Source: Gemmatimonadota bacterium
GTDB lineage: Bacteria; Gemmatimonadota; Gemmatimonadetes; Longimicrobiales; Gaopeijiaceae
Direction of reading: 5' to 3'
DNA: 51,707 nt
Assembly (NCBI GenBank): GCA_003567615.1
Contig: PWZC01000281.1
Coordinates: 1-51,707, forward strand
Shown: positions 9,789 to 31,442 of the stretch, one piece after another
How the letters are laid out: each line of letters starts with the position of its first letter
Numbering within the stretch: position 1 is the stretch's first letter
Notes under the pieces: generated by a model
Databases searched by the model: none
Told to the model about the DNA's origin: nothing
The model's input: the letters and a program-made list of their open reading frames with translations, nothing else
Made by a program: the position numbers and the translations under genes

Positions 9789-10607
9789 CTAATACTGTGC
9801 CAGCGTGCCCGCCCGCTTCGCGTACTTGAGCCCCACGCGAAATGTGGTGACTCCGACGGTGAGGAGGACCACGGTGAAGGTGAGGAGGATCATAAGGTCC
9901 GGGTAGATCGCTTCGATGGGTAGGCCCTGCAGGACACTCCGGCGGAGCCCACGGAGACCGTAGGTGAGGGGGACCACGAGGGCCAGAGGACGCACGATTT
10001 CAGGGATCACCGAAACAGAGTAGTAGACGCCCCCCAATAGCGTCGACACGGTCACTGTCGCGGCGATGAGCGGGCCTGAGGTGCGGAATACCAGGTGGAG
10101 CGCGGCACCCATGAGTCCCACCGCCAGGTAGCACAGAATGATGAGGCCAAGGATCAGAACGCCCAGGGGGAGTCCGGACCAGGCGATGGACTGCCCTGCA
10201 ATGGGGATGGCAGCCAGCATCAGCGCTGATCGGATCGTGTTCTGGACGAATCCGTACCCCACCAGCCCCGCGAGGAGGACTGGCAGGGACGTGGGTGTGG
10301 CAAAAAGGGCCTCCAGCGTTCCGGATGAGATCCCGGAGGCGATACCGTCGGTTACGCTCCGAATGGCAAAACCCACGTAGAGCGTCGCAATGAGGCCGAG
10401 AATGAGAAAACCGAAATACTGCTCTCCCTCGTCCTGAATGCTTGGGGATACGGTGGGCTGCAGCGCCTCGGCCACGAGAAAGAGGGGGACCAGTGAGACC
10501 AGTAGCCCGAAAAACGAGAAGACGATTCGAAGGCGGTAGCTTAGGGCCGTCAGGGCTGATGCCCGGACCAGGGCCAGGATCTTGGTCATCTCCCGGGTGA
10601 GTCTCAT
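9789..10607 (-). CDS. ABC-2 type transporter permease (putative lasso peptide export/immunity)
   Basis: Multi-TM protein, about six hydrophobic helices. Start trimmed to the ATG at 10607, which overlaps the ATPase stop (ATGA at 10604-10607). The longer track ORF (to 10799) has an Arg/Gly-rich N-terminus that overlaps the ATPase gene. Confidence 0.8.
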   Translation of the reverse strand: MRLTREMTKILALVRASALTALSYRLRIVFSFFGLLVSLVPLFLVAEALQPTVSPSIQDEGEQYFGFLILGLIATLYVGFAIRSVTDGIASGISSGTLEALFATPTSLPVLLAGLVGYGFVQNTIRSALMLAAIPIAGQSIAWSGLPLGVLILGLIILCYLAVGLMGAALHLVFRTSGPLIAATVTVSTLLGGVYYSVSVIPEIVRPLALVVPLTYGLRGLRRSVLQGLPIEAIYPDLMILLTFTVVLLTVGVTTFRVGLKYAKRAGTLAQY

Positions 10608-11668
10608 GCGCACCCCGCCACCACAGAAGAGGATTGAGCGGCGGGAATCGGATCGGCGGACAGGGTCTCTATGAATTCCGCCAGCGGCACTTCGCGGGGA
10701 CTCAGAAGAGCCACCTCGATCCCAAGCCCGGTGAGTTCCCGCACGAAGCGAGCGGCGGCGGCCCGCCCGCCGGGAATGTGGAGTCGGACGTGTTCCCACC
10801 CCTCACCGTCTCTGGCCTCCGGTAGGCCGTCCACCTCCAGATACGCCACTGAACCCAGTTGGCGGAGCGCCGCCTTCACTCGACCCCGGGCCACCAGTCG
10901 GTAGCGATTGTCCGCGACGGCCTCGAAGAGGTCGTCGGTGCGGCCATTCACCACAAGACGCCCATTCTCGAGAATCCCCACCCGGGGGCAGAGCTCCCGA
11001 ACCTCTTCCGCATCATGGGTGGCCAAGAGGATCGTGCACCCCTGTTCCCGGTTGATCCGGTCCCGAAGGAACACCCGGAGATTCCGGGCCGACACCGGGT
11101 CCAGGCTGCGGGTCGGTTCGTCCAGGAGCAGGACCGCCGGATCCGAAAGGAGCGCTCTGGCGACCAGAAGCCTTTGCTTCATCCCGGACGAAAAGAGACC
11201 CACCTGTTTCGTGCCCGTATCCCCAAGATCCACCACGTCCAGGACGTGGTCCACCCGCTTACGGGCCTCGACTCCGGAGAATCCCTGTAGCGATGCGTAG
11301 AGCTTGAGATTCTCTTCGGCATTCAACCGCCAGTAGAGCGACCGCTCATAGGGAATCACGGGGACGAGACGCCGCCGCACCGCCATGGGATCCTCGGCAA
11401 CGTCGATACCATCGACCCTGGCCGTTCCCGAGTCGGGGAGTACGAGTGTGGCCAGGATCTTGAAGAGCGTCGTCTTTCCGGCGCCGTTCTTCCCCAGAAG
11501 CCCAAAGAACTCCCCCTTACGTACGGAGATGGAGACGTCGTGAAGAGCTTCCTGATAGGAAGTGGATCGCGGGTGGAGGACGGTTTCCTTCCAGGAGCGT
11601 CGCACCGGAAATCGCTTGGAGACCGCCTTCACTTCGACCAGTCCGCCTGCGTCGACGGAGGGCGTCAT
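10604..11668 (-). CDS. ABC transporter ATP-binding protein (ABC-2 subfamily partner)
   Basis: Walker A GLLGKNGAGKTT, signature FSSGMKQRLLVARAL, Walker B LLLDEPTRSLD, H-loop LLATHD. The ATG overlaps the B2 stop (ATGA at 11665-11668). Confidence 0.92.
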   Translation of the reverse strand: MTPSVDAGGLVEVKAVSKRFPVRRSWKETVLHPRSTSYQEALHDVSISVRKGEFFGLLGKNGAGKTTLFKILATLVLPDSGTARVDGIDVAEDPMAVRRRLVPVIPYERSLYWRLNAEENLKLYASLQGFSGVEARKRVDHVLDVVDLGDTGTKQVGLFSSGMKQRLLVARALLSDPAVLLLDEPTRSLDPVSARNLRVFLRDRINREQGCTILLATHDAEEVRELCPRVGILENGRLVVNGRTDDLFEAVADNRYRLVARGRVKAALRQLGSVAYLEVDGLPEARDGEGWEHVRLHIPGGRAAAARFVRELTGLGIEVALLSPREVPLAEFIETLSADPIPAAQSSSVVAGCA

Positions 11669-12168
11669 GCGATGGAGTCCGGGAGGTCTACCGAGAAAAC
11701 CTCGGGCAGCTTGCGAAACGAATGGATGTGGGCGGGATCATCTCCGATCACTACGGCGTCCAGCTCCACCCAGGCGTGGGCCTGGAAGTCACCGTCCAGC
11801 TTTCTGACCCCCACCTCCACCCGGCAGGGGCCGAGACCCTCTCGGCGCAGAAGATCCCGGAGGGCCAGAGATCGCACGAGGCACTGGGGTCGGCCCGGAC
11901 CGAAGCGGGCCGCCTGGTGCACCGCCCAGGCCAGGTCCGACGCCCTGCGCCTCTTCTCCAGGGAAAGGGAGACCAGACCGTCGGCCTTCAGTCCGGCATG
12001 CCCCCCGGTCTCGTCGAGCCTGGCGGCTGTAAGGAAGCGGCCCCTGGGAATCGTGGCCTTCCGAACGCCCCAGCGCATGAGCGCTACCTGCGCGCGGCCC
12101 AGATCAGCCCAGCCGCGTGGGCCGATGGAGGCGAGCGTCTGTAGGCGTCCCAGTGTTCTGGAGAGCAC
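11665..12168 (-). CDS. Lasso peptide leader peptidase, B2 protein (transglutaminase-core cysteine protease, McjB C-terminal-domain type)
   Basis: Signature RPQCLVRSLALRDLLRREGL...VGV......FQAHAWVELD, the Cys/His/Asp core typical of lasso B2 proteins. Size about 167 aa. GTG start at 12168. Confidence 0.88.
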   Translation of the reverse strand: MLSRTLGRLQTLASIGPRGWADLGRAQVALMRWGVRKATIPRGRFLTAARLDETGGHAGLKADGLVSLSLEKRRRASDLAWAVHQAARFGPGRPQCLVRSLALRDLLRREGLGPCRVEVGVRKLDGDFQAHAWVELDAVVIGDDPAHIHSFRKLPEVFSVDLPDSIA

Positions 12169-12267: not shown

Positions 12268-12447
12268 TCAGGAGGGGGTGGGGGTGCAGAACTTGTCGCT
12301 CCGTATGCTCGGAGTGCACCGGCCCCACCCGAAGGCCTCCCAGCCCTCATACGCATCAAAATCGGCGATACCGAGTCCCTCACCACCCCTGGTGAGTTCA
12401 CGGAAGGTACCGAGGCAGGTGAGTCGAGGCGTCTCATACATGGGCAT
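12268..12447 (-). CDS. Lasso peptide precursor A1 (59 aa): MPMYETPRLTCLGTFRELTR | GGEGLGIADFDAYEGWEAFGWGRCTPSIRSDKFCTPTPS
   Basis: Internal ATG of track ORF 12268-12507, preceded by GGAG 4 nt upstream (ctgcGGAGccgtATG). The leader has the lasso motif Y-x-x-P-x-L-x3-G-x5-T with Thr at -2. The core starts with Gly1 and has Asp9, suitable for a 9-residue macrolactam. It lies between the cyclase and B2 genes. Confidence 0.85.
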   Translation of the reverse strand: MPMYETPRLTCLGTFRELTRGGEGLGIADFDAYEGWEAFGWGRCTPSIRSDKFCTPTPS

Positions 12448-12508: not shown

Positions 12509-14440
12509 TCATGCCAACCTAGCCTTCAACCACCTTTCGCTGGAAATTGCCCTGAGCAGGGAGGCCCAACCTCCGGAATCCAGGTCTGCCTTGGACTGAA
12601 GGAGGACTCTGAGCGGGTCGCGGCGAATGAGTCCCATCTCCTCCGTCAACCACTCTTCGGGTCGAGCCAGTTCCACGTCGGCCTGTCTCAACAGTTCGGG
12701 AACGTAGATCTCTCGCATGAGACCTTGGGCCGTTCCGGTCCGAAGGCCACGGTTTCGAATCTCCAGGAACGTGTGCGGAAGGTACGGTCTCATGGCGTCC
12801 CGTAACAGGGCTTTCGGTTCGAGGGGACGGTACATCCAGGACGGCGGAAAGCTGCGGATCAGTCGCGCAAGTCGAAGGTCCAGTAGTGGGGATCGCAGTT
12901 CCACTCCCCTGAAGCGCAGGTCGTCGAAGAGGGCGGCACCAAATCGACTAAATCGATAGTTCAGGAGCGCCCAGGCGCGCCATCCTTCGAAGGGTGAGTC
13001 CGCCGTCTCCATCCGGAGGGAATCGAAGCTCTCCTGGTCAACCAAGAGGATCTCCTGCGCCTCCTCTGTGGAGGTTCGGATCCACTCCGGCAGGGACCGG
13101 CCCGCCGGGCGGGGAATGATGGTCCTTCCCAGGATATGTTCCAGCCTCCGACCGAGATCCGGGTGTAGGTTGATCCGGACAGATGTGTCGATGGCTCGCC
13201 ATATGGGGATGGGGCGATGAGCCCAGAGCAGGCGGGCAGACACGATGGGCCTGAAGCGCCGGAAATGCTCGGCCAAAACCATGCTCGGGGAGGTGGAAAA
13301 CTGATTGTCGCCTCCACGGCCGGTCAAGAGCACCCGATGGCCCTCCTGGATGGCTCGGGTGGCCAGCGCCTGCTGCACACCGTTGAAGGGATACCGGCCG
13401 GGGTGGGAGTGATGGTCCTGAGGCCGATCCAGCCATTGCTCCGTCCGGATCGCATCGTACCCCACCCACTGAACGTCCAGGCTGAAGTGTCGGGCTGCGG
13501 ACTCGATCCACGGTCGCTCGAACCCGGGGTCCCCCTCGGGATAGTCGATGGAGAGGAGGGCGAGATCCCGCTGCCGGGCCGTCGAACCGGCCCCCTTCAA
13601 GCCGGCGAGAACGGCGGACGAATCCTGACCACCACTGAGCGCCAGGGAAGCGCCCACGCTGGGGGACCGTTCCGCCACACTGGCAAGGATCTGCCGGCCG
13701 ACAACCCCTGCCGCTTCTTCCCGCGGCGGCCTGGTGGTCGCCCACAACTCGGGCTGGCCAGCGAACCGGTGCACGCGAAGGTCGCCCCGACCCGCTGTGA
13801 CGAAGTGACCGGCAGGGAGTTCCAGGATCCCCTTCCAGGCGGTCCGGGAGCCATCTCCGGGGATTCCCGAGAGAGCGCTGAAAACCCCGGCTTCGTCGAA
13901 AGCCGGATATGGGGCAGGCGCACCCGCCGGACCCGCGCCCGCCAGGACAGTGGCAGACGAGTGCATGAGGATGGTGGAGCCCAGGGTCCGATAGAATAGC
14001 GACCGGGTGCCAAATACATCCCTGGCCGCAAAGAGCGTGCTGTCCGAGGTGTTCCACGCACAGAAGGCGTAGTCCCCCTCCAGGTGCAGCACACACGCCT
14101 CTCCGTAGGCCAGATAGGCGGCAGCAATGAGGTCGGCCGGACTCAACGACACAGGAGGATGCCCGATCTTCTTCAGCTTTTCCAGCAGATCGCTTCGGAA
14201 GTAGAGGCTCGCATCGCAGCCGACCACAACGGGGCCTGCCCGACCCATGAGGACCGGGCTCGCCACGTCATCCTCCATTTCCCACCGATCCCGGGCCACT
14301 CCGAGGAAGCCCCCCGAGTCGAACCTCTTGACCTCCACCTGCTCGGAGCCACGCCATGCTGCGCCCCGCAGGAGGGCTCGAACCCGTTCTTCGGGCCATG
14401 CATCCGGATGCGGGTCGACCCCGGCTGAGAGACATGTCAC
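12509..14440 (-). CDS. Lasso peptide cyclase C1 (asparagine synthetase B-fold, ATP-dependent macrolactam synthetase)
   Basis: PP-loop LALSGGQDSSAVLAGL. The AsnB-like N-domain lacks the Met-Cys glutaminase start (it begins V/M-T-C-L-S-A-G from GTG 14440). The N-terminus is colinear with the second cyclase. Adjacent to the precursor and B2. Confidence 0.85.
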   Translation of the reverse strand: MTCLSAGVDPHPDAWPEERVRALLRGAAWRGSEQVEVKRFDSGGFLGVARDRWEMEDDVASPVLMGRAGPVVVGCDASLYFRSDLLEKLKKIGHPPVSLSPADLIAAAYLAYGEACVLHLEGDYAFCAWNTSDSTLFAARDVFGTRSLFYRTLGSTILMHSSATVLAGAGPAGAPAPYPAFDEAGVFSALSGIPGDGSRTAWKGILELPAGHFVTAGRGDLRVHRFAGQPELWATTRPPREEAAGVVGRQILASVAERSPSVGASLALSGGQDSSAVLAGLKGAGSTARQRDLALLSIDYPEGDPGFERPWIESAARHFSLDVQWVGYDAIRTEQWLDRPQDHHSHPGRYPFNGVQQALATRAIQEGHRVLLTGRGGDNQFSTSPSMVLAEHFRRFRPIVSARLLWAHRPIPIWRAIDTSVRINLHPDLGRRLEHILGRTIIPRPAGRSLPEWIRTSTEEAQEILLVDQESFDSLRMETADSPFEGWRAWALLNYRFSRFGAALFDDLRFRGVELRSPLLDLRLARLIRSFPPSWMYRPLEPKALLRDAMRPYLPHTFLEIRNRGLRTGTAQGLMREIYVPELLRQADVELARPEEWLTEEMGLIRRDPLRVLLQSKADLDSGGWASLLRAISSERWLKARLA

Positions 14441-14614: not shown

Positions 14615-14923
14615 ATGATCAAGCTTCCGAATCGAGGTCCCAACGTCATCTTCCAGGAGATGGACGACGAGGCTGTTCTGTTCTGTACCCAGTCCGAAGT
14701 CTACTTCGGGCTGAATTCAGTCGGCAAGACGATCTGGGAATTGTTGGGGGATGGAGTTACCCGCTTCGACAAATTGATTGCGCTCCTGTCACAGCGATAT
14801 CCAGAGGTCGAGGAACGTGTTCTGCAAGAGGATGCCGCAGAATTCCTCGAGCAACTTCACGAGAACGGCTTGGTCACAGCCCCGGCGGCCGACCCTCAGC
14901 AGGACGATGCCGGGCATGGATGA
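14615..14923 (+). CDS. PqqD-family RiPP recognition element, lasso B1 protein
   Basis: MIKLPNRGPNVIFQEMDDEAVLFCTQSEVYFGLNSVGKTIWELLGDG...LIALLSQRYPEV...EDAAEFLEQLHENGLV: a typical PqqD/RRE pattern of about 100 aa. An upstream in-frame start at 14519 is possible, but it would add a non-homologous 32-aa extension. Confidence 0.82.
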   Translation: MIKLPNRGPNVIFQEMDDEAVLFCTQSEVYFGLNSVGKTIWELLGDGVTRFDKLIALLSQRYPEVEERVLQEDAAEFLEQLHENGLVTAPAADPQQDDAGHG

Positions 14924-15947
14924 CCTCGGCCATGCCACCGCAACCGGAGAGCATCCCGGATCCACGAAGACTCGGGAGCTCGGGTTCACCTATGCCCTGT
15001 TCGGTGGAGTGATTCACTCGTCGATACCGCTCCCGGAGTTACGTCCCGTCGATTCGGACGTCTGGGATTGGCACTTCGAGGTGGTGGATGAGCTGGAGCC
15101 GGCTCGAGAGGTGAGGACCATGGGATCGATGCAAATGTATGCGGAGATCTACAGTCGGACGTACGCTCACGCCGCTGGGTACCGCGTAGAGGTCGACGAT
15201 ACAGGGGTCTTCGATGTTTCTGCCGATGGGACGTTCATCCGACACCGGCCCCGTGCGGACCCATGGTGGGACTTCGGACGAGCTCATCTGCTCGGTCAGG
15301 TCATGGCCATCTCCCTTCAGATCCGCAGCGTCATCACACTGCACGCCAGCGCCGTGGAAACCCGTGATGGGGTCATCGGATTCCTGGCACCCAAGCACTT
15401 CGGGAAGACCACCCTGTCCCTGATCTTGACCCGGGAGGGAGCTCGGTTCGTGACGGACGACACGCTTCCCGTGCAACTCGGCGACCCACCTCTGGCTCTC
15501 CCCGGCGTCCAGAGTCTTCGAGTCCTTGCGGACAACGAGGAGGCGAAGGAGTTGATTCGAGGCGCCTTCGGTGCCCCGGTCCGACTCGAATCAGCGAATC
15601 GGGATGGAAAGATCCGGACCCCCCCACTGCCATTGCCCAGGATTCTCTCTCGCGCCCGGAAGCTGGAGGCGCTCTATCTCCTCCAGCCGGTTCGAGCCGG
15701 GGATGGTGGAGAGTCGGTGGAAAGGCTTCCCACCCACGGACCGGAGGCAGTTGCCAATGTTCTCGGTCAAACCAAGATCGGTGGGGTCCTTGGACCTGGT
15801 TTCGTGCCGGACCTCCTTCGCCAGGTATCCGGCATCGCCCGCCAGGTGCCCGTCTACCGACTTCGGATCGTCCGGGACCTGGAGCGGCTCCCCGAAGTGG
15901 CTGAACGGCTGCTCTCCTGGCATGGGACACCCGGAGAGGTGACCTGA
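14907..15947 (+). CDS. HPr kinase/phosphorylase-like serine kinase (paeninodin-type lasso precursor kinase)
   Basis: LHASAVETRDGVIGFLAPKHFGKTTLSLIL (P-loop [AG]x4GK[ST]) followed by FVTDD. Same layout as the HprK C-terminal kinase domain. Start is ATG 14907 or ATG 14916; both overlap the B1 stop (ATGGATGA at 14916-14923). Confidence 0.72.
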   Translation: MPGMDDLGHATATGEHPGSTKTRELGFTYALFGGVIHSSIPLPELRPVDSDVWDWHFEVVDELEPAREVRTMGSMQMYAEIYSRTYAHAAGYRVEVDDTGVFDVSADGTFIRHRPRADPWWDFGRAHLLGQVMAISLQIRSVITLHASAVETRDGVIGFLAPKHFGKTTLSLILTREGARFVTDDTLPVQLGDPPLALPGVQSLRVLADNEEAKELIRGAFGAPVRLESANRDGKIRTPPLPLPRILSRARKLEALYLLQPVRAGDGGESVERLPTHGPEAVANVLGQTKIGGVLGPGFVPDLLRQVSGIARQVPVYRLRIVRDLERLPEVAERLLSWHGTPGEVT

Positions 15948-15957
15948 GCTCGAAATC

Positions 15958-17202
15958 TCATTTCCCCAGGAGACCCCGCACGTAGGCGGTGGTCTCCACA
16001 ACCCGATCCAGACGTCGTCGGACCGGACTGGGAGGCGTCAGTGAGTCCGGAGCCGAGGAGTCTGCCGGCGAATCCTCCCCCACTTTCGTCTCGATTCCCG
16101 CCGACTTCCACGCGTCAGTCCGCGCCCACGGTCGAATCGTGCCGTGCTCTGAGCGACCCGGTCGGAGGGCTGCCTCCCAGATCAGTTGCCGGATCTTCAC
16201 GGGTGGCCGGGGCGCCCGCGAGGGGGGAGCGAACATCTGGGCATAGTGCTTTCTGACCAGGGCGATGATGGGCTTTGGCGTCGGTGCCTCCAGCGTCTCC
16301 AACCAGTCCGGGTCCACGGGAACATTGCCCCATTCTGTGGCCAGATGAAGTGTCCACCAGAGAGTGGATTCCGCTTTGGCCTGTCGGGCCGTACGGACGA
16401 CCTGATCCCACTGAAGCTCGGGGCGGGTGACGAGCAGACCGGTATCTCGAAGCGCCTTCCACGTGCCAGACTCGAGTGCATGGGACCAGGCGAAGTGGAT
16501 TGAGTTGTGGATGAGCATGTGCTCCCACGATGGCCTCAGGGTTCCCGGTAGGGCGCCGATGGGTACGGCCTCCCGCCACAGGTCCCGCGCAGCGAAGTGG
16601 AACGGATTCTCCTTCTGGAAGATCTCCGTGTGGATCTCCAGTCCGAGGAAAAGGCCGCTGCCATCTACGAGGGGTGGAAGATGGTGATGCTCTTCGTAGA
16701 CCTCTTCCTGGACCGAGTTGGCCCGATGGGCCCAATCGAGACCGCGCGCAATTTCCCATACTGCAGAAGAGTGCTCGGGATGGACAAGAAGGTCCACATC
16801 CCACATGGGGCGGTCGATCACCGGGAGATCCAGGGCGTGGACCAGGCCGCTCCCCTTCAGCAGAACCAAGGGGATCGAAGCCGACTCGCACTCCGCGGCA
16901 AGACGACGAAGTTTGCGCTGCATTTCTCCGAGCCTGAGGGCGTGGGTGAGCCGAAGACGCTGCATGGCCTTCAGGCCGTCGTCATCGATGTCCAGTCCCG
17001 GGTGGGATCGTCTCGTCGCGGTGAGGGCATGGACGAGAGCGGGTAGCGCCGACTCCCGTTGCGCAAGATAGATCAGGAGGGGCCAGTCAACGGACCCGTC
17101 CCACCCGGCATCGGTGAGCTCTCGCAGTACATGGGAGCCCTCGGGCCTTCGATGCGCTGTGGCCAGGACAAGCCGTGATTCCCACAAGAGCGAATCTTTC
17201 AT
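15958..17202 (-). CDS. Nucleotidyltransferase-fold family protein (uncharacterised NTP_transf_5-like), putative lasso tailoring enzyme
   Basis: PLVLLKGSGL...PMWDVDLLV (G-S ... D-x-D nucleotidyltransferase core) followed by a helical C-terminal region. Start trimmed to ATG 17202, preceded by AGGAAG (AGGAAGCTCATG). The track ORF to 17349 would overlap the cyclase C2 3' end. Confidence 0.6.
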   Translation of the reverse strand: MKDSLLWESRLVLATAHRRPEGSHVLRELTDAGWDGSVDWPLLIYLAQRESALPALVHALTATRRSHPGLDIDDDGLKAMQRLRLTHALRLGEMQRKLRRLAAECESASIPLVLLKGSGLVHALDLPVIDRPMWDVDLLVHPEHSSAVWEIARGLDWAHRANSVQEEVYEEHHHLPPLVDGSGLFLGLEIHTEIFQKENPFHFAARDLWREAVPIGALPGTLRPSWEHMLIHNSIHFAWSHALESGTWKALRDTGLLVTRPELQWDQVVRTARQAKAESTLWWTLHLATEWGNVPVDPDWLETLEAPTPKPIIALVRKHYAQMFAPPSRAPRPPVKIRQLIWEAALRPGRSEHGTIRPWARTDAWKSAGIETKVGEDSPADSSAPDSLTPPSPVRRRLDRVVETTAYVRGLLGK

Positions 17203-17276
17203 GAGCTTCCTGAGGGTGGCTGAAGCGGCGGGTCCAAGTGGACACCGCTCCTGGGGGACAGGGAGAAAGTGTGCGG

Positions 17277-19214
17277 TCAGGATCGAGGCGGTGCGTGCGC
17301 TTGCAGCCACTCTTCGACGGCAACCATGGCCACGATGAACGCATCCCACTCCAGCCTCCCCTCGAGAGCCCGATCGACGCTGCGGCGGAACCGATCCGGA
17401 GAGACCAATCCCATCCTGACAGACTCCCAGGGCGTGCGCAACCGCGATATCTTCTCCTGGATCTCAGATTCAAGCCGACGATGGAAGTAGTGTTCAAATG
17501 TGCCCGTCTTGCCCCGCCCACCGAGACGGGGCGCCAGGATTTCCTCGGGAAGTCTGCCCCTCATGGAGTCGCGGAGCAGGGGCTTCAGTTCTCCCGGGCG
17601 ATGCATCTCCTCGAATGGGCGGCTCAGGGCGAAAGACAGGACGCGTCGATCGTAGAAGGGCGAGCGGAGTTCCACGCCCTCACTTCTGAGGACCGCGAAG
17701 AGGGTCGCGCACACCCGGGAGAAGCGGGAATCCGACGCGGCCCATACCCGGAAGCGGGAATCGACGGAACGATGACGGGCCAGGACCCTCTTTGCATACG
17801 CGGTGCGATTGCCCTCCCGGATCTTGCTCACTTCGAGGACTTCGCCATTGAGCCAGGGGGGCACCGGCCACTCAAAGGGGCGGGAATCGATGGGACGGCG
17901 GAGAACCAGCTCGAGAAGGTCGAACATGGGATAGGGAATGGACGGCTTTATGACCCAACGTTTGATGTGCCCGAGTTTCGGTCGGCGGCCTTCGGGCAGA
18001 AGACGAAAAAGTTGTAGCCACCGCCCGCTACGAAAGAGATCAGCGAGAAAATAGGGCGGAACGAAAAAGAGATTATCACCACCATTCCCGCTGAGGAGGA
18101 CGCGCACGCCGAGGTCACGGGCTGTCCGACCAAGGGCCCGGTTCAGGCTTTCGTGGAGGTGACCTTCCGGATAGGCACGCTCAGCAACCTGGGAAGGATC
18201 GCGGTTCAACAATCGGATACCGTCGGTATCAACCCAGTTTATTGGGAGCCCAAAGGATTCCGCAGCTATCGAAAGATAACGATCTTCATTTGCATGTTCT
18301 TCCGGAGGTAGCCTGTATGAGAGAAGGTGGAACGGAATGTCTTCCGGGAAGGTCTCAGTCCCTCTGTAGAGTGCGCCCAGTAGAGCCGTCGAGTCATAAC
18401 CTCCACTTATGGCCAGGCCTGCCCCTGACTCGGGTACTCGCCCGCGGACGGATTTCGAAAGGATGGCCGCCAATGCCTCCGGCGCTTCCCGGCCCCAGGA
18501 TACCTGAGCTGCTGGATCTGACCCGGGCTTCCACGATTCACTGATTCGAAAGCTGACGCCTTCGGCATTGTCCTCATGCACCCAGGCATCCAGATGATGG
18601 CCCGGTGGGAGTTCCTCGATCCCTTCCCAGGCGGACGCCTGACCCACTCCACCGTGGAAGAGGAGTGACCTGAGCGTCGCAACCGGGTTGAACGATGGGG
18701 GACGTTCGAACAGCGAGACGAGGGGATGTGGAGTGGAGGCGAGCAGCAATCCCCCATCCACCTGCCGGAAGAAGAGGCTTCGCGATCCGAAGGGGTCCCG
18801 GGCTGCAAGGAGAGTTCGCTTCTCCGGATCCCAGGCGACAAAGGCGAAGTCCCCGAAGAGGTGATTCGGGCAGTTCCCACCCCACGCTCGATAGGAGGCG
18901 GCGATGAGATCCGAGGGAGACTTTGATCGGGGTGGCCATCCTGAGACGCTGAGATGTCCGCTCAGCGCCTTCCGGTCGTAGAGCGCAGCGTCTGAACAGA
19001 CAAGGGCCGACTCGCAAGTTCCAATGCGAGCCGGCCCTGCAATGTCGTCGGGTTCTTCCCAATCGTCCCGGATGACCCCCAACATCGCCCCGTCCGAGCG
19101 AATCACATCAAGCTTTTCCGAGCCTCTGCCTGGAATGGCCCGCAGCAACCGAGCGAATCCATCATGGTCAAGCCGCTGTGCAGCCGGTCCCAGGAATGCA
19201 ATGATTCCACTCAT
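17277..19214 (-). CDS. Lasso peptide cyclase C2 (asparagine synthetase B-fold)
   Basis: Starts MSGIIAF, with no Cys nucleophile. PP-loop LAISGGYDSTALLGAL. Colinear with C1 (e.g. GDFAFVAWDPEKRTLLAARDPFGSRSLFF versus GDYAFCAWNTSDSTLFAARDVFGTRSLFY). Precursor A2 lies immediately upstream. Confidence 0.85.
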   Translation of the reverse strand: MSGIIAFLGPAAQRLDHDGFARLLRAIPGRGSEKLDVIRSDGAMLGVIRDDWEEPDDIAGPARIGTCESALVCSDAALYDRKALSGHLSVSGWPPRSKSPSDLIAASYRAWGGNCPNHLFGDFAFVAWDPEKRTLLAARDPFGSRSLFFRQVDGGLLLASTPHPLVSLFERPPSFNPVATLRSLLFHGGVGQASAWEGIEELPPGHHLDAWVHEDNAEGVSFRISESWKPGSDPAAQVSWGREAPEALAAILSKSVRGRVPESGAGLAISGGYDSTALLGALYRGTETFPEDIPFHLLSYRLPPEEHANEDRYLSIAAESFGLPINWVDTDGIRLLNRDPSQVAERAYPEGHLHESLNRALGRTARDLGVRVLLSGNGGDNLFFVPPYFLADLFRSGRWLQLFRLLPEGRRPKLGHIKRWVIKPSIPYPMFDLLELVLRRPIDSRPFEWPVPPWLNGEVLEVSKIREGNRTAYAKRVLARHRSVDSRFRVWAASDSRFSRVCATLFAVLRSEGVELRSPFYDRRVLSFALSRPFEEMHRPGELKPLLRDSMRGRLPEEILAPRLGGRGKTGTFEHYFHRRLESEIQEKISRLRTPWESVRMGLVSPDRFRRSVDRALEGRLEWDAFIVAMVAVEEWLQAHAPPRS

Positions 19215-19270
19215 GTCAACATTGGCTGAACCCTGCCAAGCAGCCGAATGTGGAGCAAGGTAAGCTCGAA

Positions 19271-19288
19271 ACGGGGGGATTTCCCCGT
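19271..19288 (-). promoter_or_regulatory. GC-rich hairpin about 53 nt downstream of the precursor A2 stop, between A2 and C2
   Basis: acgggg-ggattt-ccccgt: 6 bp G/C stem (7 bp with a G-U pair) and a 4-6 nt loop. Only UU follows on the transcript. Confidence 0.35.
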
Positions 19289-19340
19289 CTACTCCCCAAA
19301 ATCAGAGGTTCGCCGACTTAGAGCAGGTCGAACCTACCGA

Positions 19341-19502
19341 TTAACAACCCGAGCAGGAGATTTCCACGGTCGAAGAGACGAAGTCGCCAATCCCCGAGGA
19401 GTACCCATTGGCAGGGTCTCCGCCGTTCACGGTCGTTCCGGAAAGGGTCAGCTCGCGCAGGGTACCGAACCTCTGGAGGGAGGGCTTCTCGTACACAGGC
19501 AT
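19341..19502 (-). CDS. Lasso peptide precursor A2 (53 aa): MPVYEKPSLQRFGTLRELTL | SGTTVNGGDPANGYSSGIGDFVSSTVEISCSGC
   Basis: Absent from the ORF track because it is under 60 aa; found by manual translation of the reverse strand. ATG at 19502, TAA at 19343-19341, GAGG just upstream (agtGAGGtATG). The leader motif matches A1, with Thr at -2. Core has Ser1 and Asp9. Confidence 0.8.
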   Translation of the reverse strand: MPVYEKPSLQRFGTLRELTLSGTTVNGGDPANGYSSGIGDFVSSTVEISCSGC

Positions 19503-19801
19503 ACCTCACTGAAAAAGAGTGGATGAAGTGGTCCCCCTCGCTTGAGGAGGAACCTAAGGAACGGACGCCCTCATCAAATGCATGTTTAGTGCCATGACAT
19601 CTTTACTGCCGAACAAAGGGAAACGCAAGTCCTCTGCGTCCAGCCTGCGTCGTCCTCCCCACCATGGCCGGGCGCCGAGGTCCCAGGAGAAGTGCCCTTC
19701 CCTCTGGATCGCCAGGGACCCGTTCAGTACTTTTCCACACATGGCGCGAGTTCCCCGCTGGAAGCGCGGCCTTCAGACTCCAAAACCCGAAGTGTCCCCA
19801 T

Positions 19802-21367
19802 ATGGCTTCCGATCCCCAGCTCGACCTTTCCTTCCTGACCCGCCTCGGCGTGGACGGCACCCACCTCTCGGGCACCTCCACCGGACGGCATACCCTGGAC
19901 CCGGCCACCGACGCCGACAGTCCGGCCTCTCTCCGAAGCACCACACCGGTGGATGGGAGCCTCATTGCCACCGTGGCGAGCACCGATCGTAGTCAGTACG
20001 AAGAGGTTGTGGCCCGAGCCCAGGAGGCGTTCCGGTTCTGGCGCGAGGTGCCGGCCCCTCGACGGGGTGAGGTCGTTCGGCAGATCGGCGACGAACTCCG
20101 GGCCCACAAGGACGATCTCGGCCGGCTGGTGGCCTATGAAATGGGCAAGATCACCGAGGAAGGGAAGGGCGAAGTTCAGGAGATGATCGACATCTGCGAC
20201 TTCGCCGTGGGTCAGTCCAGGATGCTCTACGGGAAGACCATGCCCTCAGAGCGCCCCGAGCACCGCCTCTACGAGCAGTGGCACCCCCTGGGACCGGTGG
20301 CGGTGATCACGGCCTTCAACTTCCCGGTGGACGTCTGGGCCTGGAACGCCATGATCGCCGCAGTTTGCGGCGATGTCATCATCTGGAAGCCATCGGAGAA
20401 GACGCCGCTGTGCGCCATGGCGGTGCAGGGGATCGTGGCCCGGGTTCTGGAGCGGAACGAACTCCCCGAGGGGATCTTCTCCGTCGTTCAGGGAGGGCGC
20501 GAGGTGGGCGAGTTCCTCACCACCGACGAGCGCATTCCCCTGGTTTCGGCCACCGGGTCAATCCGCATGGGGCGTGAGGTGGGCCGCACGGTAGCGGTGC
20601 GTCTCGGCCGCACTCTGTTGGAGTTGGGCGGCAACAACGCCATCATCGTCTCGAGCCAGGCCGACCTGGACCTGGCCGTTCGGGCCATCGTCTTCGGCGC
20701 TGCGGGCACGGCGGGACAGCGGTGCACCACAACCCGTCGTCTCATCGTCCATGAGGATGTCTTCGACGAGCTGAGGGAGCGCCTGATCCGGGCTTACTCC
20801 GGGCTTCGTATCGGCAGTCCCCTGGATCCGGAGACGCTGGTTGGGCCCCTGGTGGATGCCGACGCCGCTCGGGCCATGCAGGAGGCGCTGGAGCAGCTCA
20901 AGGCCTCGGGGGGTGAGGTCCTCTTCGGGGGCGAGATTCTGGATGGGGAGGGATTCGAGGCGGGGAACTATGTCCGCCCGGCCATCTGCCTGGCCGAGAA
21001 CGACTTTCCCATCGTTCAGGAAGAGACCTTCGCACCCATCCTCTATCTCATGCGCTACCGGGAGCTGAATGAGGCCATCGACCTCCAGAACGGAGTCCGG
21101 CAGGGGCTCAGCTCGTCCATCTTCACCAACGACGTTCGGGAAGCTGAAGCTTTTCTCAGCGCGCGCGGGTCCGACTGTGGGATCGCCAACGTGAACATCG
21201 GCACCAGCGGCGCCGAGATCGGGGGTGCCTTCGGCGGGGAGAAGGACACCGGAGGCGGGCGCGAGTCGGGCTCCGATTCCTGGAAGGTCTACATGCGCCG
21301 CCAGACCAACACCATCAACTGGGGGCGGACGCTCCCCCTCGCCCAGGGGATCGAATTCGACGTGTGA
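19802..21367 (+). CDS. Aldehyde dehydrogenase, ALDH7/antiquitin-like (alpha-aminoadipic semialdehyde / piperideine-6-carboxylate dehydrogenase type)
   Basis: LELGGNNAIIV, catalytic GQRCTTTRRL, EETFAPILY, and the ALDH7-typical C-terminus GSDCGIANVNIGTSGAEIGGAFGGEKDTGGGRESGSDSWKVYMRRQTNTINW. Start trimmed to ATG 19802 (MASDPQL...). Confidence 0.88.
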   Translation: MASDPQLDLSFLTRLGVDGTHLSGTSTGRHTLDPATDADSPASLRSTTPVDGSLIATVASTDRSQYEEVVARAQEAFRFWREVPAPRRGEVVRQIGDELRAHKDDLGRLVAYEMGKITEEGKGEVQEMIDICDFAVGQSRMLYGKTMPSERPEHRLYEQWHPLGPVAVITAFNFPVDVWAWNAMIAAVCGDVIIWKPSEKTPLCAMAVQGIVARVLERNELPEGIFSVVQGGREVGEFLTTDERIPLVSATGSIRMGREVGRTVAVRLGRTLLELGGNNAIIVSSQADLDLAVRAIVFGAAGTAGQRCTTTRRLIVHEDVFDELRERLIRAYSGLRIGSPLDPETLVGPLVDADAARAMQEALEQLKASGGEVLFGGEILDGEGFEAGNYVRPAICLAENDFPIVQEETFAPILYLMRYRELNEAIDLQNGVRQGLSSSIFTNDVREAEAFLSARGSDCGIANVNIGTSGAEIGGAFGGEKDTGGGRESGSDSWKVYMRRQTNTINWGRTLPLAQGIEFDV

Positions 21368-21411: not shown

Positions 21412-22551
21412 ATGAAACTCCTGAAGCTCCTCCTTCACTTCGCCGTCGGTGCCCTGGTGGGCATGGGCGTCGGCTACCTCCTGGTGGCGACCGGATGGGC
21501 GTCGGAGGTGCTGGAGCTGGTGGGTCGGGTGGAGCTGGGGCCGGGTGGGTTTGCTCTCTTCCTGGCGGGCATACCCGTCCTCCTCTTCTTCCTTGTGCTG
21601 ATCCACGAATTGGGCCATTTGACGGGCGGGCGCCTCGCGGACTTCCGGGCCTACCTCCTTCTTGTGGGGCCGCTCCGGGTGGAACGGATCCGGGGAAGGT
21701 GGACGATGGGGCTGAATCCGCGTATCGCCACCTGGGGGGGGCTTGCCGCCAGCGCCCCCGATGACGCCCGAAGCCTTCGGGGGCGCATGGCGCTCTATGC
21801 GGCGTCTGGACCGGGCGCGAACCTCCTCACCGGAGGGCTTGCCCTGGCGCTGCTGGTGACGGCCGCCGGAACCCTGCCGCCGGTTCTCCACGCCTGGGTC
21901 ATGGCCTTCCTCCTGGGCTCCTTCCTCCTGGGAATCCTGACCCTCATACCGGGCCAGGCTGCAGGGATGTATACGGACGGAGGCCGGCTCCTGCGGCTTC
22001 TCCGGACCGGGCCGGAACTCGAGGGGGAGTTGGCGCTCATCGCCCTTACCGGACTTTCCTTGGCCGGCCGGCGGCCCCGTACATGGCCGGAGGCGCTGGT
22101 CGGCCAGGCCCTCACACTGCCGCCCGATTCCCTCATGGGAGTCTTCGCGCGCCAGGTGGCCTACCTTCGAACCCTGGATCTGGGCGATGTCGAAGGGGCC
22201 CAGGGGTACCTGGACGAGGCCCTGGCCCACCGGGACGCCGTGGGAAAGCGGGGCGGTGCCACCATTCGACTACACGGTGCGTTCTTCTACGCGGTTCACG
22301 GGGGCGACCCAATGCGCGCCCGTGCGCTCCTAGACGAGGCCCGTGAGTCGCCTCTCGAGGCCCGTCACCTCCGCCCCATGGCGGAAGCGGCCGTGCGCAT
22401 GGCCGAGGGGGACGAGGCAGGGGGGCGGGCTAAGCTGGACGAGGCTCTGATCCTCGCAGGAGCATCCATGGACAGGGGAAGTTCCGGGGCCGAGGAAGAG
22501 TGGCTGAACCTCCTTCAGCGAAAGGTCGGACACCAGCGGGCTCGGGTGTAG
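21412..22551 (+). CDS. Membrane metalloprotease, M50 (site-2 protease)-like, with a soluble helical C-terminal domain
   Basis: HELGH zinc motif embedded in TM helices (LFFLVLIHELGHLTGG). Several further TM segments. Ala/Leu/Arg-rich helical C-terminal half. Confidence 0.7.
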   Translation: MKLLKLLLHFAVGALVGMGVGYLLVATGWASEVLELVGRVELGPGGFALFLAGIPVLLFFLVLIHELGHLTGGRLADFRAYLLLVGPLRVERIRGRWTMGLNPRIATWGGLAASAPDDARSLRGRMALYAASGPGANLLTGGLALALLVTAAGTLPPVLHAWVMAFLLGSFLLGILTLIPGQAAGMYTDGGRLLRLLRTGPELEGELALIALTGLSLAGRRPRTWPEALVGQALTLPPDSLMGVFARQVAYLRTLDLGDVEGAQGYLDEALAHRDAVGKRGGATIRLHGAFFYAVHGGDPMRARALLDEARESPLEARHLRPMAEAAVRMAEGDEAGGRAKLDEALILAGASMDRGSSGAEEEWLNLLQRKVGHQRARV

Positions 22552-22653
22552 CAAGAGATCCGACCTAGCCTGGCACACGGCTTGCGATCTCAAGAAAGGT
22601 GCCTTCCCTGGCCCACCGCAGCTCCGGCCTTCCATTCCCTCCGAACAACGCCG

Positions 22654-24471
22654 ATGCCGCTCCTCGAGCCGCGCACCGTAGACTTCGCCAAGTACTTCAT
22701 GAGAGCCTATCCCATGCGGAGTGCGCTCATGGTAGGGCTCCTGATCCTGGCGGGTCTGGTGGAGGGCATCGGTGTCATCACCCTGCTTCCCGTCCTGGAA
22801 CTCATAACCGCGCCGGCGGCGGAGGAGGTCTCGGCCCTGGGCCGGGCCGTGGAAGACGGACTGGCCCTCATCGGCCTCGAGCCAACCCTGGTCCTCCTCC
22901 TGGCTATCATCGTGGTGGCCATGACCGCAAAGGCCGTCTTTCTCTGGCTTGCCATGCGGCAGGTGGGCTTCACCGTGGCTCGGGTGACCACGGACCTCCG
23001 GATGGCCCTTCTGAGGGCTCTGATGAAGGCCCAGTGGCGGTATTACACGTCACAATCCACAGGGCGACTCGCCAATGCCATCAGCAGTGAGGCCCACCGG
23101 GCTTCCGCCGCATACCAGCAGGGCTGCAATATGCTGGCCGGTGGGTTCCAGATTCTGGTCTATCTCGCCATTGCCTTCCTGGTCTCGTGGCCCATCGCCC
23201 TGGGCACCATGGTCATCGGCGCCCTCTTTCTCCTCCTCCTGCGGGGTTTCGTGCGCATGGCCCGAGAGGCTGGACAGGAAGAGACCAACCTGATGCAGTC
23301 CCTGGTGGGCCGCCTCACCGACGCGCTCCGCGGGATCAAGCCCATTCGGGCCATGGGGCGGGAGGGTGACCTCCAACCCCTGCTGGAGGAAGAGGCGGAG
23401 GGGCTGAACCGGGCGTTGCGGCGACAAGTTTCCGCCCAGGAAGGCCTGTACCTCTTCCAGGAGCCCACCCTGGTCCTCCTCCTGTCGGCGGGGCTCCTCG
23501 GGGCTTTCGCCCTGGGCGGAGAGCCCTTTGCGTCGGTGCTTGTCCTGGCCTTCATCTTCTACCGGCTGATGAGGCAGGTCAATCATGTCCAAGCGCGCTA
23601 TCAGGTCCTCACCATTGGAGAGAGCGCCTTCTGGTCCATTCGGACCAAGATCGATGAGGCCGAGGCTCATCGGGAGACCTCCACCGGATCGAAGCCTCCA
23701 CCCCCCCTGACGGAAGCGATCCGACTGCGGGATGTGAGTTTCTCCCACGACGACGTGCCGTTGCTCCAGGGCGTGTCCATGGACATCCCGGCGGGCCGCT
23801 TCGTGGCCCTCCACGGTCCCTCCGGTGCAGGAAAGACCACAATCGCCGACCTCATCATCGGATTCCATCGCGCCGACTCGGGACGGGTGGAGGTGGACGG
23901 GATGTCGGTGGAGGAGTTCGATCTGGTGAGCTGGCGACGCAGGGTGGGGTACGTCCCCCAGGAGGTCTTCCTGTTTCACGATTCCATATACCGCAACGTG
24001 ACCTTGGGTGACGAGTCGATCCCTCGCGAGGAGGCAGAGGCGGCCCTCCGCTCCGCCGGCGCCTGGGGATTTGTATCCACCCGTCCCCAAGGCATGGACA
24101 CGCCCATCGGGGAGGCGGGATCCAAGCTTTCCGGTGGCCAGCGGCAGCGCATTTCCATCGCCCGGGCTCTCGTGCACGGCCCACGCCTGCTGATCCTGGA
24201 CGAAGCTACCACCGGCCTGGATTCCGTCACCGAGCAGGGGATCGTACGGACCCTTCGGAGTCTTCGGGATCGGGTCACGGTTCTGGCCATCTCGCACCAG
24301 CCGACCCTTCGTGACGCCGCCGATCTGGTCTACACCCTGGAGAACGGTGGGGTTACCCGGGTTGCCAATGCTGGAGACCCGTCGGAGGAAGGCGGACGGT
24401 GGCCCATGCCGGAGTCGCGTACCTTTCGGGGCGCCTTGGCACAGGCGCCGCTGGACGGGGGGCAGTCATGA
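22654..24471 (+). CDS. Fused TMD-NBD ABC exporter, paralog 2
   Basis: Start trimmed to ATG 22654 (MPLLEPRTVDFAKYFMRAYP..., which aligns with MPLLDRKTSQFFRYFMRAYP... of paralog 1). Walker A GPSGAGKTT, LSGGQRQRISIARAL, LLILDEAT. Confidence 0.9.
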   Translation: MPLLEPRTVDFAKYFMRAYPMRSALMVGLLILAGLVEGIGVITLLPVLELITAPAAEEVSALGRAVEDGLALIGLEPTLVLLLAIIVVAMTAKAVFLWLAMRQVGFTVARVTTDLRMALLRALMKAQWRYYTSQSTGRLANAISSEAHRASAAYQQGCNMLAGGFQILVYLAIAFLVSWPIALGTMVIGALFLLLLRGFVRMAREAGQEETNLMQSLVGRLTDALRGIKPIRAMGREGDLQPLLEEEAEGLNRALRRQVSAQEGLYLFQEPTLVLLLSAGLLGAFALGGEPFASVLVLAFIFYRLMRQVNHVQARYQVLTIGESAFWSIRTKIDEAEAHRETSTGSKPPPPLTEAIRLRDVSFSHDDVPLLQGVSMDIPAGRFVALHGPSGAGKTTIADLIIGFHRADSGRVEVDGMSVEEFDLVSWRRRVGYVPQEVFLFHDSIYRNVTLGDESIPREEAEAALRSAGAWGFVSTRPQGMDTPIGEAGSKLSGGQRQRISIARALVHGPRLLILDEATTGLDSVTEQGIVRTLRSLRDRVTVLAISHQPTLRDAADLVYTLENGGVTRVANAGDPSEEGGRWPMPESRTFRGALAQAPLDGGQS

Positions 24472-28440: not shown

Positions 28441-29408
28441 TGAGATCGCTCCCCAGGACCCTCAGGTGCACCAGCCGGTCGGAGGAGGTACGATGTTGCC
28501 GGCATACGCTCCCGAGCGTGGAATACCGCCGCCTCTGCCAGTAGCCCCAGCATGACCAGGTACGCTGCCAGTCCCGTCAGCAGGGCTGTGACGGTGGGAA
28601 AGACCATGGAGAGTTGGCCCATTTCGATAGCGGTGAGGGCAGAGCGGACCCCGAAGGCCGCAGCTAGGGCGAAGGTCAGGAGTGCGGCGGAGACGTAGGG
28701 AACCAGGGGACGTTCCCGGAACGAACGGATCATGGTGAGGACAAGCAGATCCGAGACAACCTTCCAGGTGCGGGAGAGTCCGTACTTGCTCCGGCCCGAC
28801 CTCCGGGCATGATGTCGGACCGGAACCTCGGTGACCCTTGCCCCTGCCGTCGATACCGCCAGCGCGGGGATGAAGCGGGGGAAGTCCGCGTACAGATAGA
28901 GCCGGTCCACGAGCTCCCGCCGATACGCCTTCAGCGAGCACCCATTGTCCCGGATGGAGACGCCGGTGATCCACCGAATGATCCGGTTGGCCACCACTGA
29001 GGGGATCCGCCGGGTGATCATGGGATCCTTCCGCTCCTCTCGGAAGCCGGTTACCAGATCGAATCCCTCGTACAAGGTTCGCACCAGCCGAGGGATGTCG
29101 GCCGGATCGTTCTGGAGATCTCCGTCCATGGTCACCACTGCATCGCCTCGGGCCTCCCGAAGTCCGGTCCGAAGCGCCGCCGTCTGCCCCCGGTTCCGGG
29201 GGAGGATGATGGCGCGGATTCGGTCATCGTCGCCGGCGGCCCGTTCCAGCTCCTCCCGGGTCCCGTCGGTGCTCCCATCGTCCACCACGATCAGCTCCCA
29301 GGGGCCTTCCGGTTCCAGCGCCAACCGAACCGCCTCAACCACGGGGCGCACGTTTCCCACCTCGTTGTACATGGGAACGACCACGGAGAGCAGGTTGGGC
29401 CAGATCAT
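28437..29408 (-). CDS. Polyprenyl-phosphate glycosyltransferase (GT2; GtrB/ArnC/DPM1-like)
   Basis: LSVVVPMYNE, LIVVDDGSTDGT, RNRGQTAAL..G, VVTMDGDLQNDP, two C-terminal TM helices. Start trimmed to ATG 29408, overlapping the AsnB stop (ATGA at 29405-29408). Confidence 0.88.
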   Translation of the reverse strand: MIWPNLLSVVVPMYNEVGNVRPVVEAVRLALEPEGPWELIVVDDGSTDGTREELERAAGDDDRIRAIILPRNRGQTAALRTGLREARGDAVVTMDGDLQNDPADIPRLVRTLYEGFDLVTGFREERKDPMITRRIPSVVANRIIRWITGVSIRDNGCSLKAYRRELVDRLYLYADFPRFIPALAVSTAGARVTEVPVRHHARRSGRSKYGLSRTWKVVSDLLVLTMIRSFRERPLVPYVSAALLTFALAAAFGVRSALTAIEMGQLSMVFPTVTALLTGLAAYLVMLGLLAEAAVFHARERMPATSYLLRPAGAPEGPGERSQ

Positions 29409-31441: not shown

Positions 31442-31442
31442 T

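Follow-up and report, generated by a model that had tools for sequence, protein, structure and literature searches.

Does the short open reading frame (ORF) that lies just upstream of a lasso cyclase gene in a Gemmatimonadota contig encode a second lasso-peptide precursor, and how is its end, in cysteine, to be understood? The ORF in question, A2, is found on the reverse strand of a 51,707-nucleotide (nt) stretch of DNA (contig PWZC01000281.1 of assembly GCA_003567615.1; hereafter, the window), in a lasso cluster that comprises one leader-binding protein (B1), one leader peptidase (B2), two cyclases (C1 and C2) and two precursors (A1 and A2). A2 had been proposed as a precursor in a sequence-only reading of this DNA. 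The analysis presented here indicates that A2 is very probably a genuine lasso-peptide precursor, belonging to a large and almost wholly Gemmatimonadota family, and a processing route is proposed for it.

The A2 reading frame and its family

Translation of the reverse strand between 19502 and 19341 yields MPVYEKPSLQRFGTLRELTLSGTTVNGGDPANGYSSGIGDFVSSTVEISCSGC, followed by a TAA stop codon at 19343-19341, as the sequence-only reading had it. The leader has the form Y-x-x-P-x-L-x3-G-x5-T. The ring landmarks described in that reading are likewise in place, namely Thr(-2) at 19448-19446, Ser1 at 19442-19440 and Asp9 at 19418-19416, and the translation confirms a core of 33 residues that ends in CSGC, with Cys30 at 19355-19353 and Cys33 at 19346-19344.

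Residues 4-22 of A2 match the NCBIfam hidden Markov model (HMM) NF033521, lasso_leader_L3, with 25.4 bits (E 9.8e-6). The curated cutoff of this model, whose NCBIfam name is "lasso RiPP family leader peptide-containing protein" (RiPP, a peptide made on the ribosome and modified after translation), is 19 bits. The leaders of A2 and A1 are identical at 13 of 22 positions, and we agree with the earlier reading that the two cores are unlike each other. That A2 is a second lasso precursor is thus borne out by the leader HMM, and also by its invariant residues, the maturation gene set around it and the conserved synteny described below.

Could A2 nevertheless be a chance open frame, the true feature being an overlapping ORF or a non-coding leader of C2? 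Two ORFs do overlap it: the out-of-frame one of 63 residues at 19318-19509(-), which exists as previously claimed, and a second, of 92 residues at 19248-19526(+), from the mechanical ORF list. A2 is itself short, and two results tell against it. Over 55 codons, the codon-usage log-likelihood is 3.0 in the A2 frame, close to the 2.1 of the plus strand, and -0.5 in the remaining frame, which amounts to no discrimination; and a promoter scan, which does not cover this phylum, found no sigma-70-like promoter at A2, the promoter and terminator scans together giving nothing specific there. The coding case for A2 rests on homology and on the GC content at third codon positions (GC3). The latter is 0.76 in the A2 frame and 0.65-0.84 in the neighbouring genes, as against 0.58 and 0.51 in the two overlapping ORFs. 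The curated HMM is matched above its cutoff, orthologues occupy the same position in other genomes, family members number in the hundreds, and Rfam has no match anywhere in the window. By virtue of the HMM match, the orthologues and the size of the family, the possibility of a chance frame is effectively refuted.

The sequence-only reading had described A2 as hidden. This applies solely to the first-stage ORF track; the peptide is present in the JGI, ENA, Logan and NCBI protein sets. An exact look-up finds a 53-residue form in JGI, Logan and ENA, and a 51-residue form, with a GTG start, in NCBI and ENA. These two forms bear on the start codon. The earlier reading gave 53 residues from ATG 19502; the frame holds, and the start is probably to be moved to GTG 19496. 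The Shine-Dalgarno-like element (Table 1) is better spaced for GTG than for ATG, the homologues all start M-Y-x-K-P (those in the related loci L004 and L006 with GGAG 5-6 nt before the start), and the NCBI and ENA gene calls place the start at the GTG (P0001, 51 residues). In view of these three observations the product is probably the 51-residue form, MYEKPSLQ..., and the core is unaffected by the choice.

Searches with A2 alone recover few relatives. A word-indexed search returned only A2 itself, and an exhaustive phmmer comparison with 1.84 billion representatives gave 11 matches, among which the real relatives, besides its own cluster representative P0001, are only P0094, P0097 and P0098. 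The match P0092 proved on checking to be a repeat protein, and the remaining multi-stretch matches, in much longer proteins, were judged spurious uninspected. A profile made from 11 precursors, by comparison, gave 574 candidates, 120 of them listed, and scanning genomes for the leader pattern RFG[TS][FL]RE[LVI]T[RL] gave 74 loci, about 70 of which are from Gemmatimonadota. Pooled, the profile and genome-scan matches contain at least 177 unique cores; the statistics that follow refer to 175 of these, excluding A2 and its strain variant. They document a Gemmatimonadota family of precursors that is both large and coherent and whose leader reads Y-x-K-P-x-L-Q-R-F-G-T-[FL]-R-E-[LV]-T-x.

Core position 1 is Gly in 90 cores, Ala in 33, Ser in 14 and Ile, Leu or Val in 28, in agreement with the previous remark that Ser is a less common first residue. 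The ring acceptor is Asp9 in 112 cores and Asp8 in 58. The median core length is 26 residues, and 41 cores have 33 or more. About a third of the family has two Cys in the tail: exactly two Cys are found in 54 cores, and 43 of those end in Ser. The C-terminal residue is Ser in 158 cores and Cys in none. The smallest Cys-Cys spacing is three residues, that is, CxxC is absent, and the last Cys is always at least one residue from the end. Within this family, Ser1, Asp9, a long core and two tail Cys are therefore nothing unusual; A2 stands alone only in its terminal Cys and its C-x2-C spacing.

Two further observations were made. In the 28 cores with Ile, Leu or Val at the predicted position +1, this residue follows Thr(-2)-Leu(-1) and Asp is at +8, for example TL/IGLGADGDGG... 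(loci L021, L025, L030, L033-L035, L039, L043, L044, L050, L051, L056, L063, L070 and others, with the ORFs near position 3004). Lasso rings do not usually begin with a bulky aliphatic residue, and the true cleavage in these cores may be one residue later, giving Gly1-Asp7 with Thr at -3. A 39-residue ORF beside the nucleotidyltransferase gene in locus L008 was considered and rejected as a precursor.

Pairing of A2 with cyclase C2

A2 is directly upstream of C2, as the sequence-only reading stated; the start of C2, at 19214, is 126 nt downstream. That reading had also suggested looking for the small ORF upstream of homologous cyclases, and it is found at both of the closest C2 orthologues, L003 and L008. 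The closest C2 homologue in a set of 5.8 billion proteins is P0007 (49% identity), from contig L003 of the Gemmatimonadales metagenome-assembled genome (MAG) GCA_007695195.1. On this contig a 41-residue ORF, MYQKPTLQRFGTFRELTR/SGQTAGVGDSAAFWSFPQSARTS, ends 21 nt before the cyclase, and beyond it follow genes for an aldehyde dehydrogenase, another cyclase and another precursor. NCBI gives both small ORFs, P0122 (the one adjacent to P0007) and P0120, the same lasso leader name as that of the NF033521 model. L008 encodes a cyclase with 51% full-length identity to C2; MYEKPSLQRFGTFRDLTR/AGLTAGTGDPSSSWAFTEPQMS is 68 nt upstream of it, and another cyclase comes before that. The upstream ORFs of L003 and L008 share the leader of A2, and their cores begin with [S/A]-G and have Asp at position 9.

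More distant relatives of C2 (L004-L006, 37-42% identity) are flanked by precursors of the same family. In an alignment of 11 precursor sequences, Tyr4, Pro7, Gly13, Arg16, Thr19 (that is, Thr(-2)), Gly(+2) and Asp(+9) are invariant, and all of them are found in A2. The conservation of the small ORF beside the C2 orthologues supports the assignment of Ser1 and Asp9 as the ring-forming residues. The source of the cluster is a metagenome contig (ENA ERZ27301261), and the named relatives of C2 and of the precursors are from Gemmatimonadales, Gemmatimonadaceae or Longimicrobiales MAGs. A scan of genome contigs with C2 as a single sequence gave no relatives; a scan with the precursor alignment later succeeded.

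C2 is the presumed cyclase for A2. It groups with those cyclases of L003 and L008 that have a precursor upstream, and C1, at 33-35% identity to all of these, is the outlier. What speaks against this assignment is that C2 would be chosen over C1 on adjacency and conserved synteny only.

The two-cyclase architecture is seen in three Gemmatimonadota loci: the window (12509-14440 and 17277-19214), L003 (163-2175 and 3869-5902) and L008 (2305-4143 and 4459-6405). In the window, the one locus of the three seen in full, the two cyclases are accompanied by a single B1 and a single B2. No simple orthology links the second cyclases: C1 has 33-35% identity to all the others, and the first cyclase of L008 is 31% identical to C2.

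Proposed maturation and the cysteine terminus

By analogy with known lasso systems, we infer the following route. B1 proteins bind the leader and are needed for cleavage by B2 (PMC5067487), and Thr(-2) is described as a recognition element (PMC10368454). The single PqqD-like B1 would thus bind the A2 peptide, of 51-53 residues, through its leader, and the single B2 cysteine protease would cut after Leu(-1), with Thr(-2) as a guide. C2 would then activate the side chain of Asp9 and join it to the amine of Ser1, to give a 9-residue ring and a 24-residue threaded tail, and the ABC (ATP-binding cassette) transporter would export the product.

The cluster also contains genes for a putative kinase and a nucleotidyltransferase (NTP-transferase). 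The precursor's C-terminal Ser is the residue that kinases of the PadeK/PsmK type phosphorylate; PsmN, an NTP_transf_5 protein, adds a hexose to the phosphate (PMC9266682, PMC6993621). The resulting phospho-hexose cap has been proposed to lock the threaded fold in pseudomycoidin. The most likely target of the kinase and NTP-transferase encoded here is the Ser at the end of A1. A2, with no such Ser, would probably escape this tailoring, as had been suggested before, which is a reasonable expectation from the Ser specificity of these kinases. A counter-example does exist: L010 encodes a homologue of the kinase (33% identity, E 2e-37) that follows the only precursor visible there, and this precursor ends in ...DERCYE. 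Hence, the presence of the kinase is not a strict predictor of a substrate with a C-terminal Ser in this clade. The loci concerned are L010 2693-3945 and L011; the same ...DERCYE core occurs in L069.

How did A2 come to end in Cys? The previous description of CSGC as a possible vicinal pair does not hold, in that the two Cys are not adjacent and their spacing is that of CxxC. The DNA at the 3' end of A2 reads ...TCC TGC TCG GGT TGT TAA TCG GTA GGT. If one T is deleted from TGT-TAA, the sequence becomes GGT TGT AAT CGG TAG, or G-C-N-R-stop. A subgroup of the relatives ends in ...DGC-x3-GC-N-R-S, with the DNA ends GGC TGC AAC CGG TCG TGA (L030), GGC TGC AAC CGT TCC TGA (L043) and GGC TGT AAC CGT TCC TGA (L051). 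Synonymous third positions aside, the sole difference between the repaired A2 and these relatives is TAG for TCG. The tail of A2, FVSSTVEISCSGC, also aligns with the I[IV]AS[VI]TDGC..GC subgroup (...ASVTDGCxxGCNRS), and a tblastn search with residues 3-53 of A2 matched loci of the GCNRS type. N-R-[S/stop] follows in the shifted frame after 6 of the 1734 stop triplets of the window, and after 0.23% of those in random sequence; the probability that it would directly follow a stop by chance is therefore 0.2-0.35%. The hexamer TGTTAA at the 3' end of A2 is identical in three assemblies. Reading through the TAA gives S-V-G-S-T-C-S-K-S-A-N-L-stop, which, by eye, is unlike any family ending; read-through was for that reason rejected in favour of the 1-nt insertion.

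Because the deletion of one T restores G-C-N-R-stop and with it the match to the GCNRS relatives, the Cys end is probably a truncation. That is, we read it on balance as the recent outcome of a 1-nt insertion, which would have created a stop right after the Cys of an ancestral ...G-C-N-R-S end. Two points weaken this explanation. The argument was made post hoc and requires a second change, TCG to TAG; and the ring of A2 is like that of a 17-residue group, 'GGGPxNGGDATNxYHRS', while the tail is like that of another group, so that the ancestry of A2 is mosaic or uncertain.

A different view of the same residue is that the terminal Cys is functional, either replacing the Ser of the family and being S-phosphorylated or S-glycosylated by the kinase and NTP-transferase, or binding a metal as part of CxxC. 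Cys and Ser are isosteric, one base change turns TCT into TGT, the position is that of the tailored Ser in 158 of the 175 relatives, and the kinase and NTP_transf_5 genes lie between both precursor/cyclase modules. However, no precedent was found in the literature searched, no other member among the 175 cores has a terminal Cys, and the match of the DNA to GC-NRS ends favours truncation over a substitution of Ser by Cys. We consider a functional terminal Cys of this kind very improbable.

What Cys30 and Cys33 may form instead is a small CxxC disulfide loop at the C-terminus, by analogy with class IV lasso peptides. The latter have tail-to-tail disulfides that probably form spontaneously, with no dedicated enzymes (PMC9266682), and such a loop in A2 is plausible on that account. 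A more specific version, in which the loop takes the place of the phospho-hexose cap, or the terminal Cys is S-modified, so that the cluster would make two products, a tailored A1 and a disulfide-capped A2, is rather unlikely.

A near-identical strain contig from a different sample, L002, provides a view of recent change. Compared with window positions 18238-19645, it differs at 6 of 1463 nt. Three of these differences are in the 162-nt A2 ORF, in the tail of the core, including an adjacent GG-to-CC change, and all are non-synonymous (G17P, F21S). The other three are in C2, two of them synonymous and the third A62T. With counts this low, diversifying selection on the core and relaxed constraint are not distinguishable.

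These differences also bear on whether A2 is a decaying or non-productive copy, which would have lost N-R-S by the frameshift, become a poor substrate and begun to drift towards a pseudogene. A unique C-terminus, probably derived from a frameshift, is what such decay would produce, and the excess of non-synonymous change in A2 over C2 points the same way. Yet the leader, Thr(-2), Gly(+2) and Asp(+9) are intact, the ORF is kept in at least three assemblies from different samples, and the dedicated cyclase C2 is full length, with an intact PP-loop and an end-to-end alignment with its orthologues. RiPP cores are typically hypervariable, and so changes limited to the core are just as compatible with diversification; they amount, moreover, to a mere 2-3 events. 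Decay of A2 is thus unlikely, and we retain the view of A2 as a precursor with a probably truncated end.

The surrounding cluster and known relatives

The features of the cluster are collected in Table 1.

Table 1. Features of the lasso cluster and of the A2 locus (window coordinates).
Feature	Position	Strand	Evidence
ABC exporter pair	9789..11668	-	ATPase 10604-11668, ABC-2 permease 9789-10607
B2, transglutaminase-like leader peptidase, sole copy in cluster	11665..12168	-	NF033537, 74 bits (cutoff 33); PF13471
A1 precursor, 39-residue core, two Cys, C-terminal Ser	12268..12447	-	NF033521, 27.1 bits
C1, second, more divergent lasso cyclase	12509..14440	-	33-35% identity to C2 and both L003 cyclases
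B1, PqqD-like RiPP recognition element, leader-binding, sole copy in cluster	14615..14923	+	NF033536, NF033530; PF05402 on L001 call
HPr-kinase-like lasso tailoring kinase (putative)	14916..15947	+	weak TIGR04352, TIGR04355 matches, E ~0.004
NTP_transf_5 (PsmN-like)	15958..17349	-	PF14907, 102 bits (cutoff 31); gene callers' version 15958-17202
C2, Asn-synthetase-like lasso cyclase, 645 residues, PP-loop SGGYDS	17277..19214	-	Pfam Asn_synthase + GATase_7
A2-C2 intergenic region, nested hairpins	19215..19340	-	RNA fold -53.9 kcal/mol, z = -2.57 vs shuffles
A2 precursor ORF	19341..19502	-	translation; NF033521; predicted by gene callers as P0001, P0002
A2 core SGTTVNGGDPANGYSSGIGDFVSSTVEISCSGC, 33 residues	19344..19442	-	alignment + family statistics
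A2 leader (M-P-V-)YEKPSLQRFGTLRELTL	19443..19502	-	NF033521 match, residues 4-22; invariant columns of 11-sequence alignment
Shine-Dalgarno-like GAGG	19504..19507	-	7 nt before GTG 19496, 1 nt before ATG 19502

B1 and B2 are both within 8 kb of A2, and when the window was scanned for the motif in six frames, no third precursor came up. The best NCBIfam match of C2 is the lasso cyclase model NF033535, under the exception-level cutoff of that model. The public gene call for C2, P0006, has 602 residues and begins 43 codons too late; the alignments with the orthologues and with the lasso cyclase HMM begin at Met1 (MSGI...) of the 645-residue ORF. The putative kinase is a protein of 343-389 residues, whose TIGR04352 and TIGR04355 scores are far under the cutoffs and for which sequence searches gave no match in Pfam or in the PDB. 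It has the motif His188, Lys210 (GKTT from 209) and Asp227-Asp228 (TDDT from 226), and this His/Lys/Asp-Asp motif is conserved in homologues at the kinase position of other lasso clusters. The same pair of ABC exporter genes is found in the related clusters L004-L006 and L009.

A1 sits downstream of its own cyclase, C1. Its core has Cys at positions 24 and 34, with a spacing of 9, and a further Cys is found in its leader (LTCLG). Exactly two tail Cys are present in each of the two precursors of the cluster, and none in the orthologous precursors of L003 and L008. The hairpins between A2 and C2 were not flagged by the terminator scan and have no proper U-tract; L003, with only 21 nt between the two genes, has no such structure. 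The folded region may serve to stabilise the mRNA or act as an attenuator, and in this way fix the ratio of precursor to enzymes.

Judged by its gene content, the cluster is probably of the paeninodin/pseudomycoidin type, with a putative kinase and an NTP-transferase, and A2 lacks the C-terminal Ser that defines this type. The gene sets of paeninodin (PadeA) and pseudomycoidin (PsmA), from Firmicutes, correspond to the present one in precursor, cyclase, split B1 and B2, NTP_transf_5 and ABC exporter, and their HPr-kinase-like kinase has its putative counterpart here (PMC6993621, PMC9266682). The leader logic (Y-x-x-P...T at -2) and the 9-residue ring closed on an acidic residue 9 are also shared. 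In contrast to these systems, the present cluster is from Gemmatimonadota, with two cyclases and two unrelated cores, and its putative kinase is too divergent for matches in Pfam or the PDB; the C-terminal Ser, the site of phosphorylation and glycosylation, is found in A1 and not in A2. Ring position 1 is Ser in A2 and Ala in both paeninodin and pseudomycoidin (PMC6993621, PMC9266682).

With the class IV lasso peptides (LP2006, pandonodin, felipeptins), A2 shares exactly two Cys, both in the tail and none in the ring, and a long core, 33 residues in A2 and 33 in pandonodin. No dedicated oxidoreductase is evident among the neighbouring genes surveyed, which is a further likeness. A disulfide in A2 would differ in being C-x2-C at the very C-terminus, a spacing unseen in the 175 relatives. 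A2 also resembles the Gemmatimonadota precursors themselves (for example P0122 and P0120 of GCA_007695195.1), which have the same leader, an [S/G/A]-G-x6-D ring and a cyclase of the C2 type as neighbour; their last residue is Ser (TS or HRS) and their cores are mostly shorter, unlike the 33-residue core of A2 with its CSGC end. A 9-residue ring between Ser1 and Asp9, as predicted for A2, is reportedly found in streptomonomicin, which Metelev et al. are said to have described in 2015 from Streptomonospora alba; its cluster is reportedly actinobacterial, belongs to the lariatin type and lacks both a kinase and an NTP-transferase, and its leader and core are said to be unrelated to those of A2 and to contain no Cys.

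A2 completes the annotation of a lasso cluster with two precursors and two cyclases. We found no reports of an isolated lasso peptide from Gemmatimonadota; the papers located give only counts of biosynthetic gene clusters. Apart from its Cys end, A2 is an ordinary member of an already annotated family, and its recognition is routine RiPP genome mining. What sets it apart is that its C-terminal tailoring site is removed, probably by a single-base insertion. A1 and A2 thereby form a matched pair with which to ask whether tailoring is needed for folding, export and activity, and how specific the cyclases are.

On the other side of A2, a 62-residue ORF in the gap before the next gene (19554-19742(-)) is called in the public contig (L001 9755-9943), has no family match or evident homology, and is probably spurious. 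The gene divergent from A2, at 19802-21367(+), encodes an L-piperidine-6-carboxylate dehydrogenase (NF050084, 826 bits, cutoff 730, equivalog level). Aldehyde dehydrogenases of the same Pfam family are encoded between the cyclases in L003 (2296-3861) and directly upstream of the cyclase in L004 (6173-7993); the gene is absent from L005 and L006. The cluster-adjacent dehydrogenase could be a tailoring enzyme or simply reflect conserved synteny. Beyond it are a weak match to an M50-family peptidase (21412-22551(+)) and a half-transporter with ABC_membrane and ABC_tran domains (22582-24471(+)), the best NCBIfam match of which is HepA-family, under cutoff. These two genes could provide a second exporter for the cluster or be part of the surrounding glycosyltransferase and exopolysaccharide region, which also holds a genuine AsnB-type asparagine synthase at 29405-31654(-).

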